Under the pieces are notes generated by a model that saw nothing but the letters and a program-made list of their open reading frames with translations, was not told the origin of the DNA and made no database searches. Positions 45,302 to 58,360 of a DNA stretch of 64,000 bases are shown piece by piece. How positions within the stretch are numbered: position 1 is the first letter of the stretch; each line of letters begins with the position of its first letter. Position numbers and translations under genes: made by a program. The stretch spans positions 1 through 64,000 of the forward strand of contig JARVGK010000006.1 of the NCBI GenBank assembly GCA_029762535.1, in the 5' to 3' direction. Source of the stretch: Thermoplasmatota archaeon. GTDB taxonomy: Archaea > Thermoplasmatota > Penumbrarchaeia > Penumbrarchaeales > Penumbrarchaeaceae.

Positions 45302-47542
45302 CTATATCGAGTCAATAATGGCATTGTAGGTCTGGCTAGGCCTCATGGCCCTGGATGCCATATCGTCATCCGGCTTGTAGTAGCCGCCTATGTCCACGGG
45401 ATGTCCTTGGGCCGCGTTAAGCTCCTGCAATATCTTATCCTCGTTCCCCTCGAGCTGTTCTGCCACGGGTGTGAATATACTCTTCAGCTCGGGATCGTCA
45501 TTCTGATCCGCAAGCTCCCTTGCCCAGAACATGGTCAGGTAGAAATGGCTGCCCCTGTTGTCTATCTCGTTGACGTCTCTACCGGGCGACCTATTGCTCT
45601 CGAGGAACCGACCGTTGGCCCTATCCAGGGTTTGGGACAGAACTCTAGCCTTTTCGTTCCCGGTCCTGTTGGCCAGGTGCTCGAGCGATGCCGATATGGC
45701 AAGGAACTCACCCAAAGAGTCCCATCTGAGATGACCCTCATTGAGGAACTGCTCGACGTGTTTGGGAGCGGAACCTCCCGCACCCGTCTCGAATAGACCT
45801 CCGCCGTTCATCAACGGCACGATCGAGAGCATCTTTGCGCTTGTGCCCACCTCTAGTATCGGGAAAAGGTCCGTGAGATAGTCCCTAAGGACGTTCCCAG
45901 TCACGGAAATAGTGTCCTTTCCCTCCTTTATGTACTGGCATGAGAACCTGGTGGCCTCGTCCGGAGACATTATCCTTATATCGAGCCCTGTCAGATCGTA
46001 TTCTTTCAGATATTCGTTCACTTTTTTGATCAATTCCGCATCGTGGGGCCTTTTCTCGTCAAGCCAGAACACGACAGGGAGCTTCGTATCGATGGCCCTG
46101 CCCACAGCTAATTTCACCCAGTCCTTGATCGCCGGGTCCTTGACCTCGCACATCCGGAAGATATCGCCCTTCTCCACATCCTGCTCCATCAGGACCTCGC
46201 CAGAGGAGGCGACTAGCCTCATCTTTCCGTCGCCTGGTGCCGAGAAGGTCTTATCATGGGACCCGTACTCCTCGGCCTTCTGGGCCATGAGGCCGACGTT
46301 CTGGACAGACCCCATGGACCTGGGGTCGAAAGCACCGTTCTGCCTGCAGAAATCGACGACGGCCCTGTACACCCCGGAATAGCTGCTGTCAGGGATCACG
46401 AACTTTGCCTCTTTAAGTGTCCCATCCTTTCCGTACATCCTACCACCTGCCCTGATGGCTGCGGGCATGGAGGCATCGATTATGACATCGCTCGGGACGT
46501 GGAGATTGGTTAGGCCCTTATCCGAGTTCACCATGGCCAGCTCTGGACCTTTGGCATACACCGCCTCGATGTCCTTCACTATCTCCAACCTCTTCTCCTC
46601 AGGTAGCGATGCGATCTTTGTGTATAGGTCTCCTAGTCCGTTGTTGGGGTTGATCCCAAGCTCCTTGAATATCACTTCATGCTTCTCGAATACGTCTGCG
46701 AAGAAAACGGAGACAACGTGTCCGAATATAATAGGGTCGGACACCTTCATCATCGTCGCCTTCAGATGGATAGAGAACAGTACCCCCATCTCTTTAGAGT
46801 GCTCTATCTGCCCCCTTATGAAATCCCTGAGGGATCTCACGCTCATGTGAGATGTATCGACGATCTCCAGGGCAGGCAGCTTCATATTATCCTTGAGGAC
46901 CTTGACATCGCCGTTATCTCCAGTATATTCTATCCTTGCCTCCATGTCCGAGTCTATCGTCAAAGACCTCTCGTTCGACCTGAGATCCCCGGATGCCATG
47001 CTGGATACATGCGCCCTGTTATCGGGTTTCCATTCAGCCATGGAATGCGGGTGCTTCCTCGCATAGTTCTTTACGGATGCCGGGGCTCTCCTATCTGAAT
47101 TCCCTTCTCTCAGGACGGGATTGACCGCGCTGCCTTTTATCTTATCATAGACGGTCTTTATCGTCCTTTCCTCATCGTTCTTGGGTTCATCTGGATAATC
47201 CGGCAGGGCGTACCCTTTGCCCTGCAGCTCCTTTATCGTCGCTTTTAGCTGTGGTATCGACGCGCTTATACACGGGAGCTTGATAACGTTCGCTTCGGGC
47301 ATTTTGACAAGCTTCCCCAGCTCTTCCAGGTCATCGTTGATCCTCTTGTCCTCGCTCAGATGGTCGGGGAACTTGGCTATCGTCCTGCCGGAGAGCGATA
47401 TGTCCCTGGTCTCCACCTTCACTCCCGCGGCTCCCGTGAACGCTTTGATCACGGGAAGCAGCGAATAGGTCGCAAGCGCCGGGGCCTCATCGACCCTGGT
47501 GTATATTATCCTGTTTCCATCAATTCTCTCTTCGTTCGACAT
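45302..47542 (-). CDS. icd: Monomeric NADP-dependent isocitrate dehydrogenase
   Basis: [39 protein letters not shown] and [13 protein letters not shown]; about 746 aa; SD AGGAG. Confidence 0.95.
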
Positions 47543-49172
47543 CCTTTTCCTCCTTTTCAGCGAATACCGCATCATCGTAGTATCTTGGTTCGACGTTCCT
47601 TACCACATCTATGATGGTCCCGTCCCTGTATTCGATCAAAGCAACGATCTCATCTCCCCAGTTAGGTTCGACCTTGGTCTGGGTTATCTCGTAGGCCTGC
47701 CTTTGAAGGTCCTCTATGGTCGTTATCTTCATGTCCCGGGGTATCTTGACCGAAGCGAGCTTTTCAAGAAGGTCGATCCTTCGCGGGTTCATCGCTATGC
47801 CCCGCTCTGTCACGACGACGTCAATGTTCTCTCCAGGGGTCACCACGGTGTTGACCCTGTCGACCACGACCGGATACCTTCCTCTGAAAAGAGGGACGGT
47901 CAATATCGTCAGGCTAGCTCCGGCCGCGGTGTCCGAGTGCCCTCCGACGGGCTCGGCTATGATGCCGTTGGACATCGTGACCGAATTAACGTTATAATCC
48001 AGATCCACCTCGGTCGCGCCCAGGACGACTATGTCCAGCTTGTTGACGGTACATCCTCTCCCATGTATGTTGGCGTATGCTCCGATAGGCAGGTCAACGT
48101 GGATCTTGGGGTTCTCCTTCATGTTATGTATGGCGGCCACATCGAATGCCTGGCCCGTGATGAGTTTCTTCACTGTCCCATCGAGGAGCATCTCGACAAG
48201 GAATTTCGTGGTCCCGCCCTGGGCCCAGGCGGCCTTCACCCCCTTTTCCTTCATCCTCTGATGAAGGAATTCCGTGAAAGCAAGCGAGATCCCCCCGGCC
48301 CCCGCTTGAAAGCTCATCCCCTCCTTGACGTAACCCAATAGGTCCGCGATCCTCATCGCGTCCTTGGCTATCTTGAGCCTGGTGGGCGAGTTGGTTATCC
48401 TGAGTTCGCCTGAGGCGATCTTGTTCGGATCCCCTATCTTGTCCACGACGACCACGTAATCTACCAGCTCCTGGCCGATGGACATGGGGAAGTTGGGATA
48501 TTCCACAAGATGGTCCGTCACTGCGATAACATGGTCGGCGAAGTGAGCATCGGCATAGGCGAAATTGATCGTACCGCAAGCTGATGGGCCGTTGATCGCG
48601 TTGAGATTTCCCAGTTCATCTGCGGATGGTGCTCCTATGAAGGCCACATCCACGTGTATGTCACCGGCCTCGATCGCCCGGACCCTTCCCCCATGGGACC
48701 GGATCCTCATAGGTTGGTTGAGATATCTTCCTGAGCTTACGAGCCTCCCGAACTCGCCCCTTGCGGAACCGCCTTCGACCTTTTTGATCGTCCCGTTCAT
48801 TATACATCGGATTATTGCCTCCTCCTGGCAGGGGAATGTGGATGAGGGGGCAAGGATGAGGTCCTTTATTCCCTTCCTCTCGATCTCCGCAAGGACCATG
48901 TTCATCACATGGTCCCCGTTCCTGAAATGGTGGTGGAAGGATATGGTCATGCCGTCCTTCAACCCGATCTTTTCCATTGCCTCGCCAAGTGTTTTCACAA
49001 CCTCGTTCTCCTCGGAGGCAACATATCCGAGCTTGGGTCCGTACTTATGGTCCTTGACCGGCCTGTGGGCGAAGGGACCTTTGTAAGGTATCAGCTCCAC
49101 ACCATCGATGGACCTCGGGACCTTTCTACCCAGGGAGTTCTCCACCCACTCCACATCCGAGATCTTCACCAT
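47520..49172 (-). CDS. citF: Citrate lyase alpha subunit (citrate CoA-transferase)
   Basis: [35 protein letters not shown]...NVN, GGHSDTA and EYRDGT.ID. Confidence 0.9.
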
Positions 49173-50116
49173 CAGTCATCGCCTCCACCGCTTTTTTTTG
49201 CCTTCTGCTGCATCATCTCCGTCACTTCCTCGGGAGATGGTATGTCAAGGTCCGCCATCTTGGCGATCTCGAGCACCCTCTCGGCCTTGAGCACTATTGG
49301 TCTGTCTATCATCTTCGCCCCTAGGGCGACCGCTCCTGAGCCCTTCTTTTTCGCTTCCTCGATAGCCATCTTCACCCTAACGGCGTAGAGGATCTGCTCT
49401 GGGGTTGGATCGAAAACCGAATGTATTATCTCGACCTGGCTGGGATGGATGCATGCCTTTCCATCGTAACCCATTGTCTTTATCATCTCGGTCTCCTTTC
49501 TCAAACCTTCGGGGTCGCCGAAATCAGAATAGACAGTATCTATTGCTTGTATCCCGGCGGCCTTGGCCGCGAGAAGTACCATCGACCTAGCCGTGTTTAT
49601 CGCCGTTCCTGTGCTGGACCTCTCACCCCCGAGATCCGCTGTAAGGTCCTCTCCGCCTATGGTAAGCGCCTCGAGTCTTTTGGAGCATCTTGCGATATCA
49701 TATGCGTTGATGATGCCCTTTGCCGTCTCCAATGTCGCGAACAGCTTTATCCTGCCTATTGGGAGGCCTTTCTTCTCCTCCAGGTCGGTCACGATATCAT
49801 CCACCTGTATGACGTCCTCCCTGGACTCGACCTTCGGAATGTATATGCCGTGCAGTTTCTCCGAGACTATCTGTTTGATGTCCCATTTCCCGTAGGGCGT
49901 GCTCATCGGATTGATCCTCACGGTGACCTCGGTCGCTGGGCCGAAATCGATGACCTTCAATGCCTCGGAGACGAGCATCCTGGCATCGGTCTTGTATTCG
50001 AGGGGAACGGAGTCCTCAAGGTCTAATGATATTACATCGGCGCCGTATAGACCTGCTGGGGGTATCATCTTCGGGTTGTTCCCTGGGACGTATAGCCTGG
50101 AACGTCTGAGCCTCAT
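49172..50116 (-). CDS. citE: Citrate lyase beta subunit (citryl-CoA lyase)
   Basis: RRS.LYVPGN, DLEDSV, VRIN, ETA.G, G.EDL and GK..IHP.Q. Confidence 0.9.
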   Translation of the reverse strand: MRLRRSRLYVPGNNPKMIPPAGLYGADVISLDLEDSVPLEYKTDARMLVSEALKVIDFGPATEVTVRINPMSTPYGKWDIKQIVSEKLHGIYIPKVESREDVIQVDDIVTDLEEKKGLPIGRIKLFATLETAKGIINAYDIARCSKRLEALTIGGEDLTADLGGERSSTGTAINTARSMVLLAAKAAGIQAIDTVYSDFGDPEGLRKETEMIKTMGYDGKACIHPSQVEIIHSVFDPTPEQILYAVRVKMAIEEAKKKGSGAVALGAKMIDRPIVLKAERVLEIAKMADLDIPSPEEVTEMMQQKAKKSGGGDD

Positions 50117-50397
50117 TCAAAAGCGCCCCCTTTTATCGCAGCGGCCTTGGTGCGCGCCACTATGGTGAAGTTCAGAGGGCTCTTACCAGAGCTCCAAACG
50201 ATGGCGTCCTCTATGCCCATACCGTGAAGCGTATTATCAAAGATCCGGAAGACCTCATCCCTGAAGACATCTCGGGATTTCCCCACTATTTCTATCTTTA
50301 TACCAGTCCCGGGCTCTGCGGGCGAGAGCTTTACTATGCAGTCCTCTCTCTCCTCGGTGCCGGCCTGGGCCTCCCTTAGCAGCTTTCTTGCGGCCAT
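50113..50397 (-). CDS. citD: Citrate lyase gamma subunit (ACP)-like protein lacking the attachment serine
   Basis: 94 aa directly upstream of citE. AQAGTEERED aligns with the canonical AVAGTLESxD. Confidence 0.75.
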   Translation of the reverse strand: MAARKLLREAQAGTEEREDCIVKLSPAEPGTGIKIEIVGKSRDVFRDEVFRIFDNTLHGMGIEDAIVWSSGKSPLNFTIVARTKAAAIKGGAFE

Positions 50398-50409
50398 GAC
50401 ATCACAACC

Positions 50410-52332
50410 TCATGAAAGCTGGCTCTTGGTATAATTGAGGGTTCCGCCGAGCCTGATGGTCTCCAGCTCCCTATCGGAGAGATCGTGGACGAGCTTTATC
50501 TTCGATCCCTTGTTCACTACCTCAATGATCAACTCACCCTTGAGATCGCCCACTTCCAGCTTCAGCTGGTCACCCTTCTCTATCTTGTCGTAATCGGAAG
50601 GGTCATTGAAGGTCAAGGGTGGGATCCCGAAGTTAATTAGGTTCGCCCTGTGTATCCTTGCGAAGGACTTGACGATAACAGCTTTGACACCAAGGTATTT
50701 CGGTGCCAGTGCTGCGTGCTCTCTGGATGATCCCTGACCGTAATTGTCCCCGCCGATGACGAAACCACCTTTCTTCTCGAGCGCCCTCTGCGGGAAGGTG
50801 TTGTCCACCTGACTGAAGACGAATTCGGATATGGCCGGGACGTTGGACCTGAGAGGCAGGATCTTCGCTCCTGCGGGCATGATGTGGTCCGTCGTTATGT
50901 TGTCTCCGACCTTTATAAGGACCTCCCCATTAAGCTCCGGCGATAGCGGTTGGAAGTCCGGCAGCGGTTTTATGTTAGGACCTCTCAGGATCTCCACCTT
51001 TCCCGCCTCATCAGGGGGCAGCGGATACACTATTAAGCTGTCGTCGTAGTCGTAAACCTCAGGTTCATCGATCATGTGCATTTGACCGATCTCCCTCGGG
51101 TCCGCGAACTCTCCCTTTATCGCCGTATAGGCAGCTATCTCTGGGGAGACCAGATAGACCTGGGCATCCTTTGTACCTGACCGGCCTTCGAAGTTGCGGT
51201 TGAATGTCCTCACTGATATCGCTCCCGTGTTCGGAGCGAGACCCATTCCAATGCATGGTCCACAGGCGTTCTCGAGCATCCTGAAACCCGCTCCGACGAT
51301 ATCCGCCAGCGCGCCGTTCTTGGTTATCATCTTCACAATGGCCCTCGATCCGGGGGATACGGTAGCGGATACATCCTGATGGACCTTCTTCCCCTTCATT
51401 ATCTGGGCGACAACCATAAGGTCCCTGTATGATGAATTCGTGCAGGAACCCACGCATACCTGGTCCACTTTCATACCCAGAAGCTCTTTGAGGGTGACCA
51501 CCGCCCCTGGGGAATGAGGTTTTGCCACCATCGGCTCCAAGGATGAGAGGTCTATCTCCATGACCGTATCGTAAGCTGCGTCATCGTCAGCTTTCAGTTC
51601 GATCCATTGGTCCTCCCTGCCCTGTGCCTTGAGGAACTGCCTGGTGATCTCGTCCGAGGGAAATATGGAGGTCGTGGCTCCCGTTTCCGTCCCCATATTT
51701 GTGATCGTGGCCCTGTCCGGGACGCTCAAACTCTTAATGCCTGGGCCGAAATACTCAAGTATGAATCCCCTGCCTCCCTTTACATCGAGCCTTCTTAGGA
51801 CCTCGAGTATCACGTCCTTGCCGGATACCCAATCAGGAAGCTCACCCTTCAGATGGACCCCCATGATCTTCGGGTACTTCAGACCGAAGGCCCCACCTCC
51901 CATGGATACTGCGACATCGAGACCGCCTGCACCTATGGCGAGGGATGCCACGCCACCAGCAGTTGGTGTGTGGGAGTCCGATCCGATCAGGGTCTTTCCC
52001 GGCCTTGCGAAGCGTTCGAGCATTACCTGATGGCAGATCCCGTTGCCGGCCTTGGACAGCGTAATGCCATATCTCCTCGCGATGGATTGGAGATACCTGT
52101 GATCGTCAGCGTTCTTGAAATCGCTCTGCAGCGTGTTATGGTCTATGAATGATACGCTCAATTCGGTCTTTACCCGGTCAAGGCCCATTGCCTCGAACTG
52201 AAGGTATGCCATGGTCCCAGTAGCATCTTGGGTGAGCGTCTGGTCCATCTTGATCCCTATATCGGATCCTTTCTCTTCATCTCCTGATACGATATGTTCT
52301 CTGATGATCTTCTCCGAAAGGGTTAGTCCCAT
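50410..52332 (-). CDS. acn: Aconitate hydratase (short, ~640 aa type)
   Basis: QDATGTMA, DHN, GSDSHT, GSCTN, CGPCIG, NRNF, TTDHI and GSSREHA; SD AGGAGG. Confidence 0.9.
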   Translation of the reverse strand: MGLTLSEKIIREHIVSGDEEKGSDIGIKMDQTLTQDATGTMAYLQFEAMGLDRVKTELSVSFIDHNTLQSDFKNADDHRYLQSIARRYGITLSKAGNGICHQVMLERFARPGKTLIGSDSHTPTAGGVASLAIGAGGLDVAVSMGGGAFGLKYPKIMGVHLKGELPDWVSGKDVILEVLRRLDVKGGRGFILEYFGPGIKSLSVPDRATITNMGTETGATTSIFPSDEITRQFLKAQGREDQWIELKADDDAAYDTVMEIDLSSLEPMVAKPHSPGAVVTLKELLGMKVDQVCVGSCTNSSYRDLMVVAQIMKGKKVHQDVSATVSPGSRAIVKMITKNGALADIVGAGFRMLENACGPCIGMGLAPNTGAISVRTFNRNFEGRSGTKDAQVYLVSPEIAAYTAIKGEFADPREIGQMHMIDEPEVYDYDDSLIVYPLPPDEAGKVEILRGPNIKPLPDFQPLSPELNGEVLIKVGDNITTDHIMPAGAKILPLRSNVPAISEFVFSQVDNTFPQRALEKKGGFVIGGDNYGQGSSREHAALAPKYLGVKAVIVKSFARIHRANLINFGIPPLTFNDPSDYDKIEKGDQLKLEVGDLKGELIIEVVNKGSKIKLVHDLSDRELETIRLGGTLNYTKSQLS

Positions 52333-52509
52333 TTTATTCCTCCTTATCACCTGCCCATCGGGGCGATTGCCATAAGTCGAACCGATATATATATGTTACT
52401 GAATTATAATTATAGAAAATCTTTTTTATATTATTGTAGATGATTTCTTAAATTAATTTCCATTATAACGATGAATATATATATGATCGGGTGCATCATG
52501 TAAGCCAAT
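52333..52509. promoter_or_regulatory. AT-rich divergent promoter region (acn operon / regulator)
   Basis: Very AT-rich. ATATATATATG occurs twice (~52386 and ~52475), and several TTTATA/TTAAA boxes are present. Confidence 0.55.
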
Positions 52510-53664
52510 ATGAAGAACTTGAACGATGCTGAGAGAACGGCCCTGTTCGGTCTCGTGACATTTCCCGATCTCAACGACATGGACCTCTCACAACGTTTCT
52601 CAATGAAGTATTCCACATTCGCCTCGGCCAAGAGTCGCGTGATCGCAAAGGGATTCGTCGATGAGTACTATCTGCCCGTATTCCCTAGGCTTGGCTTCGA
52701 GCTATTGGCGACCGTATATACGGATTTCAACCCTGCTGTGACTGTGGAGGAACGCGTCAAGAACACGATAAAGCATGTAGAGGTCTATCCCGAGATGGTT
52801 TTTTCCCTCGGAGAGTCACACAGGGGTTTCTCGATATCGATCGCTGAGAACGTCACCCGCGTCATGAGGATATCACTCGAGAGGATCAAGTTGTTCGCTG
52901 AGCTGAACCTTCTGGAGATCGAGCTTCCCACGGAGATAATGCTTCCGTTCGAACTCTCGAACATTCATAGGTACTTCAACCTCTCACCACTGATCAATCT
53001 TACTTACTCCACCACGGGCAAGAGCGGGTCGGAGCTTTCCAAGGAATTCTCCATCCCCCGAAGCGATCTTCTTTTTGGGGATTCGATTATGCAGGTCAAT
53101 CCTAAAAACGAAAGATCGCAAGAGGACGATCTCTCCAGGGTGGAAAAGGAGCTGATGTACTATATAGTGAAGTACCCTCAACTATCGGCGGCAAAGCTCG
53201 CGAACATCGCCCCCTATTCTAGGCATACGATATCAAAGGTGAGGGAGGACATGCTGTATCGGGGTCTTCTAACCAAGCAGGTCATTCCGAACCTCAATGT
53301 ACTAGGATATTCCATACTCTCCCTGTTCCATGCCCGGATCGATCCAAGCAAACCCATAGATCCATCGACATGCAACCGGAGAGAGATCCTCCAGGATGAG
53401 ACCGTGTTCCTTGTCAGTAGGCCGACCGAGCTTTTGATGCTCGCCGTTTACGAGGATTACGTACATTACAACAAAGGCATGGGTGCTTTCATCCAGTTCC
53501 TCAAGTCAGGGAACTACATAACCAAGATCCCGACGATAAGGAACCACTCCCTCAAAGAGGCGATCATGATCAAGAGGTTCCAGTACCATGAGCTCCTGAG
53601 ACAGAGGTTCTCGCTCAATATCAAAGATGGTCGAGATACCAATATCGATGATCATCTCTCGTGA
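52510..53664 (+). CDS. Tandem-duplicated Lrp/AsnC-like winged-HTH transcriptional regulator
   Basis: Two homologous halves (L...E...L..LV.FP.L....L......ST.......GF......P....LG and LS..EK..M..IVKYP.LS...LA....SRHT.S......GL.....P....LGY). Confidence 0.65.
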   Translation: MKNLNDAERTALFGLVTFPDLNDMDLSQRFSMKYSTFASAKSRVIAKGFVDEYYLPVFPRLGFELLATVYTDFNPAVTVEERVKNTIKHVEVYPEMVFSLGESHRGFSISIAENVTRVMRISLERIKLFAELNLLEIELPTEIMLPFELSNIHRYFNLSPLINLTYSTTGKSGSELSKEFSIPRSDLLFGDSIMQVNPKNERSQEDDLSRVEKELMYYIVKYPQLSAAKLANIAPYSRHTISKVREDMLYRGLLTKQVIPNLNVLGYSILSLFHARIDPSKPIDPSTCNRREILQDETVFLVSRPTELLMLAVYEDYVHYNKGMGAFIQFLKSGNYITKIPTIRNHSLKEAIMIKRFQYHELLRQRFSLNIKDGRDTNIDDHLS

Positions 53665-54702: not shown

Positions 54703-55956
54703 TCACCTCTTCTTGCGGGCCTTGATCTCGACGCTCGGGCTGAGATCGACAACGCTCTGACCCCTTACCAGGTCGTCGGGTATGGGCTTCTCCTTCTCGG
54801 ATACGAGATCTGGAAAGAGGGTGTTCAATTTCTTTGTTTCGAAGGGGCCCGAACGTAACAGCTTCGGAGGGTCCGTGCTCATATCGAGCACCGTATGGCC
54901 TATGCCGTAATGGGTAGGCCCTCCATCAACGGCTATTGTCACGGTTTCCCCCAGTTGCTTGAGCGCCTCCTGCATTGTAGAGGGTGGAGGCTGCCCATGG
55001 ATGTTCGCAGAAGTGCCACATATCTCTATCCTCTCCATCACCGCTTTCATGAAGATGTTCTCACCGTCGGCTAGAGAGACGGTCTTCAGATTGGATGTAA
55101 CATAGTCGGGCACCCGTTCCTTCTTCTTTATGAATATAATGGATATCGGCCCGTCCAATTCGTTCTCCAGCAATGCCATGGTTCTGTCATCGATCTTCGC
55201 GTAATCCGTGAAACGGCTTCTCGGGACTATCATGGTCAGAGGCATGTCCTCTCCGCGTTTCTTCATCGCGTAGATCCTCTTGATGGCCTCCGGACGTTTT
55301 ATTGAGGCGAAAAGCCCATAGGTTGTATCGAAGGGACCTAAAAGGACCTCCCCTCGATTCAACATCTCGACCACGGTATCGACATATTTTTCCTTTGCCG
55401 GAAATATCTTCACCTTTTCAACCTCCTTCATTCTATCATTGTCCTTGAAAGGTCTGCTCATCTCCGATATACCGCCCTTCTCTATAAGAAGGGGAAATAG
55501 TCCGCCTTTTTCGATAATATCCATTATGAAACCTTGAAGCGGGGGCAGCGGCGAATCCCAACCCTTGGTGATATTATGTAACCTGTTATCCTCTATCAGG
55601 ACGCTGTCACCGTCAGAGCAAGCATCGGGAAGGTCGGGGTCCTCGTAAAGCGGTATGCCGAGATTTATCAGGTTCCTCTTCATTATAGGGGCTATTGACT
55701 TGGCAATGACCGCTTTTATTCCCAGGAACCTCATGGCGTTTGAGGCATGCTCTCTTGAGGACCCCTTGCCGAAGTCCTCACCGGCGACGATCACATCGCC
55801 TTCTCTGACCCCGGAGGCGAACCCAGGATAATCCTGCTCAAGGCAATGAAGGGAATAATCCTCCTGTGGAAGATGCAGATACCTCGTAGGGGCCAGCGCA
55901 TCGGTATCGATATTATCCCCCAAAAGCCATATCCTTCCCTTTGCGATCTGTTTCAA
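54703..55956 (-). CDS. Fusion of a LeuD/HacB-type isomerase small subunit and a YrdC/Sua5 (TsaC) domain
   Basis: N-terminal GDNIDTD, FG.GSSREHA and RN.IN.G motifs; C-terminal P.DT.YGL, K.R, TSAN, DGG and LLR.G motifs; one continuous frame. Confidence 0.85.
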   Translation of the reverse strand: MKQIAKGRIWLLGDNIDTDALAPTRYLHLPQEDYSLHCLEQDYPGFASGVREGDVIVAGEDFGKGSSREHASNAMRFLGIKAVIAKSIAPIMKRNLINLGIPLYEDPDLPDACSDGDSVLIEDNRLHNITKGWDSPLPPLQGFIMDIIEKGGLFPLLIEKGGISEMSRPFKDNDRMKEVEKVKIFPAKEKYVDTVVEMLNRGEVLLGPFDTTYGLFASIKRPEAIKRIYAMKKRGEDMPLTMIVPRSRFTDYAKIDDRTMALLENELDGPISIIFIKKKERVPDYVTSNLKTVSLADGENIFMKAVMERIEICGTSANIHGQPPPSTMQEALKQLGETVTIAVDGGPTHYGIGHTVLDMSTDPPKLLRSGPFETKKLNTLFPDLVSEKEKPIPDDLVRGQSVVDLSPSVEIKARKKR

Positions 55957-57182
55957 GGCACCACCTCTGAAGGATGGGCTATAACGCCTTTTAGCGCGGA
56001 TGCCGCCGCGACGGCGACACCGCTTAGGTATATCTTGCTCGTGGGATCTCCCATTCTACCCTTGAAGTTTCGATTGGTGGTAGAGATCGCCACCTCTCCT
56101 GCGGGGAGGACTCCGAGGAAACCTCCTGCACAAGGGCCACAAGTAGGCATCGATATTATCCCCCCAGCATCCATAATGGTCTTAACGTATCCCGCCCTGG
56201 CCGCCCGGGTGTATACCGATCTCGACCCGGGAACGACGAGCATCTTGACCTCTGGGTGGATCTTCTTTCCCTTCAGGATGTCCGCCAGGACCCTGAGATC
56301 GTCCATTCTTCCATTTGTGCATGAGCCAATGAAGACCTGATCTATCCTCTTTCCGGTATGATTGTAGACATCGTCCACTCGATCCGGGGAACCTGGCAAG
56401 GATATCTGAGGTCCTCTGTCGGTCACATCGATATGCTCGGTCTCCCAGTCCCAATCCTTCGATCCTGGCCCTTCATCATCGCTTTCGTTCGTCAGCGCTG
56501 ATATACAATCTATCTCCGATGCCATATTGGTGAGTGTCATCCTGGAATCGTTTCCGATCCAATTCAATATATCCCCCTTCATCTCGAGCGTTCTGCCGTT
56601 CGCCCCGCCCGGTCCGAGGTGCTTGATCATCATAAGCGCCAGGTCCTTTCCCTCGCACCATACGTCCGGGGTACCCTCGAAGTATATGCCAAGGGGTTTA
56701 GGAACCTGCAGCCAGAACTCCCCGGAGGCCATGGCGACGGCCAGGTCCGTGGACCCTATGGCCGTGCAGAACGCACCCAAAGCACCTCCGGTCGTTATAT
56801 GGGAATCGGCGCCTATGACGAGATCACCCTTCTTGACCCGATCCCCCTCGAAGAGATGCACGTGACATATGCCCTCGCCCCATCCGATCAGGTTCGCTAT
56901 TCCGTGACGGGATGAGAATTCTGTCATGGCCCGGCAGCTTTCGGCTGATTCAAGGTCCTTCGGCGGAGTGAAATGGTCCAGATAAAGGTATATCTTCTTG
57001 GCCGCCCTTAGATACGGGACACCTTTGGAGTCCAACATCCTCATCGCAGGTGGGGTTGTAACATCATGTCCCATTATATGGTCCGGGAAGAAAACACCGT
57101 AATCCCCCGGGACGAGATCCCCTTCGATCATATGATCTGAGAGTATGGACAACGCCAATGAACCAAGTACATCCCCGTTCAT
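55953..57182 (-). CDS. leuC: 3-isopropylmalate/homoaconitate-type isomerase large subunit (LeuC/HacA)
   Basis: DH, GICH, GADSH, GSCTNGR, PTCGPC and STTNRNF.GRMG. Confidence 0.85.
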   Translation of the reverse strand: MNGDVLGSLALSILSDHMIEGDLVPGDYGVFFPDHIMGHDVTTPPAMRMLDSKGVPYLRAAKKIYLYLDHFTPPKDLESAESCRAMTEFSSRHGIANLIGWGEGICHVHLFEGDRVKKGDLVIGADSHITTGGALGAFCTAIGSTDLAVAMASGEFWLQVPKPLGIYFEGTPDVWCEGKDLALMMIKHLGPGGANGRTLEMKGDILNWIGNDSRMTLTNMASEIDCISALTNESDDEGPGSKDWDWETEHIDVTDRGPQISLPGSPDRVDDVYNHTGKRIDQVFIGSCTNGRMDDLRVLADILKGKKIHPEVKMLVVPGSRSVYTRAARAGYVKTIMDAGGIISMPTCGPCAGGFLGVLPAGEVAISTTNRNFKGRMGDPTSKIYLSGVAVAAASALKGVIAHPSEVVP

Positions 57183-58360
57183 TGGCAGTGCCTCCTCAGG
57201 GATTTCAATTCGAAACCGTTGGCCCTTGCGAATTGTATAAGATCGTCCTCAGTATCGAACGGGCCTTTGTATGTGGTCGTCTCTTTTACCAGGTCCGTGA
57301 GCTTTATCAATTTCTCATCGTCCAATGTCAGATTGTTCTTCTCGAGGAAATGTCTCAGTGCCGCCTTTCCGGTATGCTTTCCGATCACGAACTGACCTTT
57401 ATGCAGTCCCATCTCCTCCGGGTCGATGATCTCGTAGGTCAGGGGGTTCTTTAGTACGCCATGAACGTGTATACCGGACTCGTGCTTGAAAGCGTTCTCT
57501 CCTATGAGAGGCTGCCATATCTGTATGTTCAGACCCATCTCGTTCTTCACGGTGTCGCATAGGTTGCCAAGTCTGTCCATCTTCAAATTGGTTTCCACGC
57601 CCAGATGCCTGATGTTGAACTTCAATACGACCGCTATCTGTTCTAGAGGGCAGTTCCCGGCCCTCTCTCCGATCCCGGTCACCGTGCAGTCTATCTGTCC
57701 CGCACCGGCCCTGACCGCCGATAAGGTGTTGGCAGTTGCCAATCCTAGATCGTTGTGGCAGTGTATGCCCACCGGAACCCTGTCCCCAACACACGAGCGG
57801 ACATGCTGGATCATGAGAGAAATATGCTCGGGCATTGCACATCCGACCGTATCCGCGAGATTGACCACATCGGCTCCAGCTCTGACCCCTTCCTTCATAA
57901 TGTTCCCCAGAAAGAACAGGTCGGACCTTGTCGCGTCCTCCGAGCTGAACTGAATGGAATCGAACTTACCCTTGGCGTACCTTATCGCGTTGATCATCTT
58001 GTTTATGACATCCAGGGGTTCCATCCTGAGTTTGTCCCTCATGTGTATCGGAGAGGTGGATACCCAGAGGTGGAGCCTTGACCTTCCCGCTCTGGAAAGG
58101 ACCTCCTGGCACATGTCGATCTCGGTCGTTATCGGCCTGCATAGAACAGCTACTGTGGAGTTCTCCACCTCCTTGGAGATCATCCTTATCGCATTTCTCT
58201 CTGATCCTCCGTTGGCCGGAAAACCTGCCTCAAGTACGTCCACTCCGGCCGAGTCCAAAGCACGGGCTATGTTCACCTTCTTTTCTGGGGTGAGGTGTAT
58301 CCCTGGCGCCTGCTCACCATCCCTCAGAGTGGTATCGAATACCCTTAAATTCCTGACCAC
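57179..58360 (-). CDS. DRE-TIM 2-isopropylmalate/homocitrate/citramalate synthase family enzyme without a regulatory domain
   Basis: DTTLRDGEQ, EDATR, DTVG, HCHNDLG, GIGERAGN and HESGIH; 393 aa. Confidence 0.9.
   Translation of the reverse strand: MVRNLRVFDTTLRDGEQAPGIHLTPEKKVNIARALDSAGVDVLEAGFPANGGSERNAIRMISKEVENSTVAVLCRPITTEIDMCQEVLSRAGRSRLHLWVSTSPIHMRDKLRMEPLDVINKMINAIRYAKGKFDSIQFSSEDATRSDLFFLGNIMKEGVRAGADVVNLADTVGCAMPEHISLMIQHVRSCVGDRVPVGIHCHNDLGLATANTLSAVRAGAGQIDCTVTGIGERAGNCPLEQIAVVLKFNIRHLGVETNLKMDRLGNLCDTVKNEMGLNIQIWQPLIGENAFKHESGIHVHGVLKNPLTYEIIDPEEMGLHKGQFVIGKHTGKAALRHFLEKNNLTLDDEKLIKLTDLVKETTTYKGPFDTEDDLIQFARANGFELKSLRRHCQ

Follow-up and report, generated by a model that had tools for sequence, protein, structure and literature searches.

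We analyzed a 64,000-nucleotide stretch of a Thermoplasmatota archaeon genome (positions 1 to 64,000 of contig JARVGK010000006.1, assembly GCA_029762535.1; hereafter the window) that carries genes for aconitase, the citrate lyase subunits CitD, CitE, and CitF, and isocitrate dehydrogenase (IDH) in one apparent operon. The genome has a size of 2.96 Mb and a completeness of 93.4%, and we placed it in Thermoplasmatota class EX4484-6 (Ca. Penumbrarchaeia). The metagenome-assembled genome Protein_d157_A_EX4484-6 is a relative from the same family, and its source study describes the class as anaerobic protein degraders (PMC12220078). As stated in a preliminary description of this DNA, the five genes are co-oriented, as minus-strand open reading frames (ORFs) from 45302 to 52332, and lie next to a divergent regulator.

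50410..52332, minus strand: aconitase, PRK07229 type, 640 amino acids (969 bits against a cutoff of 612; Fe-S cysteine motifs intact)
50113..50397, minus strand: altered CitD, citrate lyase gamma subunit with Arg17 in place of Ser14 (PF06857, E value 1.6e-10; below the TIGR01608 cutoff)
49172..50116, minus strand: CitE, citryl-thioester lyase (best match TIGR01588, 322 bits, below the cutoff of 443)
47520..49172, minus strand: CitF, family II CoA/acyl carrier protein (ACP) transferase (TIGR01584, 587 bits against a cutoff of 501)
45302..47539, minus strand: monomeric NADP-dependent isocitrate dehydrogenase (TIGR00178, 1239 bits against a cutoff of 950)
52333..52509, no strand: AT-rich intergenic stretch between acn and the regulator, putative divergent promoter region
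52510..53664, plus strand: divergent winged-helix regulator, 384 amino acids (tandem Lrp/AsnC-like by eye)

The genes are closely packed, with a 12-nucleotide gap between acn and citD and overlaps of 4, 1, and 20 nucleotides at the citD/citE, citE/citF, and citF/icd junctions. The stretch at 52333-52509 between acn and the regulator is likely a divergent promoter region, and relatives of the regulator have two helix-turn-helix regions. Key residues are preserved in the enzymes: Arg67, Glu130, and Asp157 of CitE are invariant among 26 homologs, and His594, Arg605, and Arg654 of the IDH align to His589, Arg600, and Arg649 of 1ITW.

The CitD subunit departs from its bacterial counterparts at the carrier site, Ser14, which we take to be the attachment residue for the phosphoribosyl-dephospho-CoA group in canonical CitD. 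The window protein has the motif GTEERED, versus GTLESGD or GTQESSD in canonical CitD. The alignment is ungapped between the invariant Gly13 and Asp19, and Arg17 falls in the Ser14 column, which confirms the altered CitD that had been described. CitD proteins of E. coli, Klebsiella, and Streptococcus all have serine in this column. Pairwise BLASTP of the window protein against E. coli CitD gave no match; the mapping of Ser14 to Arg17 is based on multiple alignments and on matches to the Klebsiella and Streptococcus proteins. When 120 homologs were compared, 70 of the top 71 had Arg or Lys at the carrier column (the remaining one is truncated) and nearly all lower-ranked homologs had Ser. As a control, a Ser-bearing homolog was found clustered with citX, citG, citC, and a Tct transporter.

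Loss of the serine has not been followed by loss of the gene. The ratio pN/pS is 0.20 for the altered citD, in line with its neighbors (0.17-0.24 across all five operon genes; citF 0.18), so CitD is under purifying selection and is not decaying. It is probably a non-carrier subunit. We found no solved CitD structure. A predicted complex of the altered CitD, CitE, and CitF with CoA scored 0.86, and a control in which CitF was replaced scored 0.82, so the prediction is not discriminating.

CitG and CitX produce the phosphoribosyl-dephospho-CoA group of canonical CitD, and CitC adds the acetyl moiety (PMC10798043). The genes citX, citG, and citC had been reported missing from the window, and we found them neither there nor in the rest of the 93.4% complete genome in hidden Markov model searches or in tblastn searches that used as many as four canonical query sets. 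Across wider samples, citX was found in none of 37 class genomes and none of 301 phylum genomes, and citG in none of five selected genomes, two of which are closed. No candidate loader linked to the altered CitD was seen. Because the CitD serine is lost, the loaders were not found, and the gene order is conserved, CitE and CitF (CitEF) would very probably work on free CoA esters, independently of ACP. This mode had been proposed from the window, and it also agrees with the lack of Si-citrate synthase described below. Members of the CitF family are able to use CoA esters in vitro (PMC9813914).

The gene order could have proved unique to a genome with a standard citrate synthase, one of three outcomes that the preliminary description had named as counting against its proposal, none of which was encountered. 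Instead, the order of regulator and acn-citD-citE-citF-icd is kept in all 11 mapped loci of the family and also in the sister family, and Si-citrate synthase was found in none of the 37 class genomes. The retention of the order together with the regulator in 11 of 11 family loci means that it is not due to chance; throughout the taxonomic order, the regulator adjoins the operon. Outside the class, one genome (G067) has the complete operon and three (G207, G258, and G291) have at least acn-citD-citE-citF. Operon-type CitF proteins from three families form one supported clade in a tree in which the citF row of G008 was disregarded. The G020 citF (L055:9987-11643) is split by a frameshift in that one genome, either an assembly error or a genuine break. 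The window genome also has a second, stand-alone citF (C58:81406-83052; L038:9407-11053), 41% identical, between ksgA and a tetratricopeptide repeat gene. This is a housekeeping locus, conserved in the family and without citD or citE.

The alteration of CitD extends through the phylum. Our survey of 301 genomes found a CitD domain in 54 and a CitF match in 96, and the carrier serine is missing from every CitD domain inspected, the residue being Arg, Lys, or Glu. A citDEF cluster with a likewise serine-less CitD is present in Aciduliprofundum boonei T469 (ADD08777-ADD08779) and in MAR08-339. At other loci (L133-L137, L140, L143, L147, L149, and L150), CitD and CitE are fused into serine-less proteins of about 375 amino acids, usually after a small HD-domain gene, and citF at loci with fusions often adjoins a HacA-type hydratase gene. 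A different arrangement occurs in family f21 (L153-L158), where citF is followed by a gene for a citrate-synthase-fold citryl-CoA lyase, together with an HD-domain gene and in some cases an aconitase-family gene; CitD was found in none of 36 genomes of this family. This pairing of CitF with a CoA-type citryl-CoA lyase makes sense only with free citryl-CoA. We considered whether f21 might be methanogens, which would favor synthesis, and rejected this, as mcrA was found in none of five genomes.

We next consider the substrate. The IDH slot of the operon holds the monomeric type in the window; in G004 and G005 its place is taken by a PRK08299 NADP type, and in G024 and G067 by an enzyme of the LeuB/IDH family. 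Because the monomeric and PRK08299 families are isocitrate-specific and the operon hydratase is a true aconitase, we predict with high confidence that citrate is the lyase substrate. PrpD was found in none of the mapped loci. The monomeric IDH had earlier been noted as the type used for reductive carboxylation in Chlorobium; since three IDH types fill the slot in relatives, it is not diagnostic of direction.

The surrounding metabolism places the operon in a branch. A search of 26 genomes of the order gave no SdhA/FrdA, and SucCD was not found in the window genome, so acn-citDEF-icd forms a linear branch and not a cycle. ATP-citrate lyase (ACL) is encoded at a separate locus (C5:952-4073; L005) by intact aclB-aclA with catalytic motifs. 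In 9 of 20 genomes, no more than 10 kb separates the ACL genes from citF, and in several relatives aclB-aclA, often followed by acd (ADP-forming acetyl-CoA synthetase), is convergent toward the operon. The genome also encodes two glutamate dehydrogenases (GDHs), aspartase, malic enzyme, POR, pyruvate carboxylase, and two Acd paralogs. The idea that ACL and CitEF together substitute for Acd was rejected, as Acd is present. The GDH genes are in tandem (C27:30270-33119; L092), one of an NADP-specific type and one archaeal GdhA-like, and the malic enzyme gene directly follows a LarA-family nickel malate-racemase-like gene (C9:58975-61582; L179).

Markers of established glutamate fermentations are scarce. 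Glutamate mutase was found in none of the 37 class genomes, and a stand-alone carboxyltransferase for glutaconyl- or methylmalonyl-CoA in none of the order. The beta subunit of a Na pump was likewise not found. The query used for KorA detected a similar gene in 4 of 23 family genomes, and a KorAB-like pair, a candidate 2-oxoglutarate:ferredoxin oxidoreductase, lies on contig C49 of the window genome. Class families f5-f9 (nine genomes) retain a larger part of the succinate/methylmalonyl-CoA route: all have a stand-alone carboxyltransferase and most have Sdh. They have neither CitD nor CitF.

Our best model, inferred from the genes and given about an even chance, is a free-CoA citrate lyase that ends a reductive-carboxylation route of glutamate breakdown. 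CitF would move CoA from acetyl-CoA onto citrate, releasing acetate, and CitE would cleave the citryl-CoA to oxaloacetate and acetyl-CoA. Because acetyl-CoA is merely catalytic with free CoA and acetate as the partner, the net reaction would be citrate to acetate and oxaloacetate, without ATP, a prosthetic group, or CitC/G/X. CitD would be retained as a non-carrier subunit, and the Arg or Lys at its former serine site may, speculatively, contact a CoA phosphate. Aconitase, NADP-IDH, and the lyase would then connect 2-oxoglutarate with acetate plus oxaloacetate: glutamate would give 2-oxoglutarate (by GDH or transamination), then isocitrate by reductive carboxylation, then citrate for cleavage. 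For oxaloacetate, possible exits are aspartate, aspartase, or malic enzyme to pyruvate. The simplest division of labor would assign cleavage to CitEF and synthesis or acetyl-CoA supply to ACL, and the presence of a full citrate synthase alongside CitDEF in A. boonei fits a cleavage role for CitEF.

The lineage is described as protein-degrading (PMC12220078). The branch would most likely be a catabolic outlet for glutamate-family amino acids, in a family without known glutamate-fermentation routes. More tentatively, protein-degrading Thermoplasmatota may ferment glutamate by a new route, in which CO2 is added to 2-oxoglutarate and the resulting citrate is split by the free-CoA lyase. Recycling of oxaloacetate via aspartate and malic enzyme could supply NADPH, and glutamate would yield acetate, pyruvate, and ammonia without B12 or radical chemistry.

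We examined direction with a max-min driving-force model, assuming energies of +17 kJ/mol for GDH and +4 kJ/mol for Acd. The other energies were taken from PMC13147460, Table 1. With a separate NAD pool for GDH, which assumes that the second GDH uses NAD, modeled breakdown via CitEF has a driving force of +5.7 to +9.1 kJ/mol. The catabolic direction of the branch seems to us somewhat probable, and several observations weigh against it. If GDH and IDH share NADP, breakdown is borderline (-0.9 to +1.9 kJ/mol) and requires CO2 at about 10 mM. One GDH is of the NADP type usually used for synthesis, and GltB was not found; nor were class I fumarase, class II fumarase, or malate dehydrogenase identified in the window genome, which does have the KorAB-like pair and two HgdD-family genes. 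In G024, acn-citDEF-icd-aclB-aclA-pycB-pycA are all co-oriented, and pyruvate carboxylase placed after the operon fits synthesis. ACL plus ADP-forming acetyl-CoA synthetase would carry out the same net reaction, so that CitEF looks redundant. Finally, because the family is a single clade, the anti-correlation of CitD and CitF with established routes represents few independent events.

In the opposite direction, CitE and CitF would convert acetate and oxaloacetate to citrate, and IDH and NADP-GDH would draw the citrate on toward 2-oxoglutarate and glutamate. Such a citrate synthase substitute, one of two directions offered in the preliminary description, is favored by the lack of Si-citrate synthase in the class, by the pyruvate carboxylase genes of G024, and by the presence of both NADP-IDH and NADP-GDH. 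We nevertheless consider it unlikely, since the driving force of modeled glutamate synthesis via CitEF is below zero at oxaloacetate of 0.1 mM or less. It becomes positive if oxaloacetate reaches 1-10 mM, and near 1 mM only with 10 mM acetate, whereas synthesis via reverse ACL is positive in every modeled case (+1.2 to +6.3 kJ/mol). ACL is intact and often close to citF, A. boonei keeps CitDEF beside a citrate synthase, and a protein eater has plentiful glutamate. Less likely still is fermentation of external citrate, aconitate, or isocitrate, in which the lyase would cleave imported tricarboxylates while aconitase and IDH bring in isomers or lead a part away to 2-oxoglutarate. All characterized CitEF enzymes ferment citrate (PMC10798043), and another contig encodes a DASS-family transporter, but it is unlinked to the operon, and no mapped locus has a transporter in or beside the operon. 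CitM, 2-HCT, and TctA/C gave no match with the queries used, and for the Na-pumping oxaloacetate decarboxylase no beta subunit (OadB) was found and none was linked to the operon.

A reversible valve, in which CitEF, ACL, and ADP-forming acetyl-CoA synthetase hold citrate, acetyl-CoA, and acetate in balance, and reverse ACL with CitEF gives ATP from acetyl-CoA, is slightly less probable again. The convergent aclB-aclA and acd genes of relatives would suit it, and every step is near equilibrium (PMC13147460, Table 1); however, the two Acd paralogs do the same conversion in one step, and the fixed link to aconitase and IDH is left unexplained. It is improbable that CitD continues to carry a covalent group, attached to a different residue by unrelated enzymes. 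In favor of this, CitD is conserved, its fusion to CitE is frequent, and the window protein has five other serines, but the only well-conserved one, Ser73, is not retained outside the order, the carrier site is Arg, Lys, or Glu and thus offers no shared chemistry, and no candidate loader is linked. An autotrophic or complete reverse tricarboxylic acid (TCA) cycle with ATP-free citrate cleavage, the other direction originally offered, is very improbable and largely refuted by gene content. ACL, aconitase, IDH, the KorAB-like pair, POR, and pyruvate carboxylase are present, and there are proposals of complete cycles in other families of the class (PMC12220078 supplement); the order lacks detectable SdhA/FrdA and the genome SucCD, and CitEF would give acetate and not net acetyl-CoA, with reactivation costing ATP.

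Three HMGL-family genes are present, two of which were assigned by family and context (homocitrate synthase and pyruvate carboxylase B). The LeuA-like gene at 57179-58360 may be the remaining candidate for Re-citrate synthase activity. It lies within a group at 54703-58360 of the window (minus strand) that comprises a LeuA/homocitrate-synthase-like gene, HacA/LeuC, and a HacB/LeuD subunit fused to Sua5/TsaC; this group is not retained beside the operon in relatives. Elsewhere (C17:819-17261), a 3,308-amino-acid ORF, polyketide synthase-like by eye, is followed by a 2,142-amino-acid eukaryote-type single-chain acetyl-CoA carboxylase (L169:2834-9262), matched in about 10 of 23 family genomes. 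It is a possible consumer of ACL-made acetyl-CoA.

In the literature searched, we found no paper on serine-less CitD or on an acn-citDEF-icd operon, and the PMC12220078 supplement does not mention citD, citE, or citF. Our analysis contributes a survey of archaea across the phylum, the co-occurrence with ACL, an analysis of direction, and a cultured organism for tests. A natural citrate lyase of two or three genes that needs neither ATP nor posttranslational loading would be simple to assay and useful for pathway engineering, and cultured A. boonei T469 makes the enzyme claim testable now. The proposed glutamate route suggests a way for archaea that are widespread in sediments to get rid of glutamate, the most common residue pool of protein, without textbook routes. 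It also warns against taking aclAB, aconitase, and IDH of these archaea as a sign of carbon fixation: the set is read as a partial reverse TCA cycle but may instead be catabolic.

The closest known system is bacterial CitDEF (EC 4.1.3.6; Klebsiella, E. coli, and lactic acid bacteria), which has homologous D, E, and F subunits in the same order and the same predicted net reaction. Identity to the Klebsiella and Streptococcus proteins is 43-46% for CitF and 41-42% for CitE. Unlike the bacterial system, the archaeal operon lacks the attachment serine, citC/G/X, and any linked transporter or linked oxaloacetate decarboxylase, and citDEF is predicted to be cotranscribed with aconitase and IDH genes. 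Judged from its genes, it would work like citrate lyase yet falls outside canonical CitDEF. The chemistry proposed is that of family II transferases acting on CoA in vitro (EC 2.8.3.10 with EC 4.1.3.34; PMC9813914). In the known ACP-dependent enzymes, CoA use is a side activity; in the window archaeon, it would be the sole mode. ACL and the reverse TCA enzymes CCS/CCL also proceed via free citryl-CoA and are also clustered with aconitase and IDH, but they use ATP, form net acetyl-CoA, and have an unrelated lyase fold, and the window genome has ACL separately. In methylaspartate fermentation of glutamate, a CitDEF-type citramalate lyase frees acetate as the carbon-cleaving step, and B12-dependent glutamate mutase is needed. 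The archaeal class has no detected mutase, and the proposed route would run via CO2 fixation on 2-oxoglutarate and not via citramalate. Reductive glutamine metabolism of animals, which uses reverse IDH, aconitase, and ACLY, is ATP-dependent and biosynthetic. The archaeal route would follow the same carbon path from 2-oxoglutarate to citrate cleavage, but as a fermentation, which the animal route is not.

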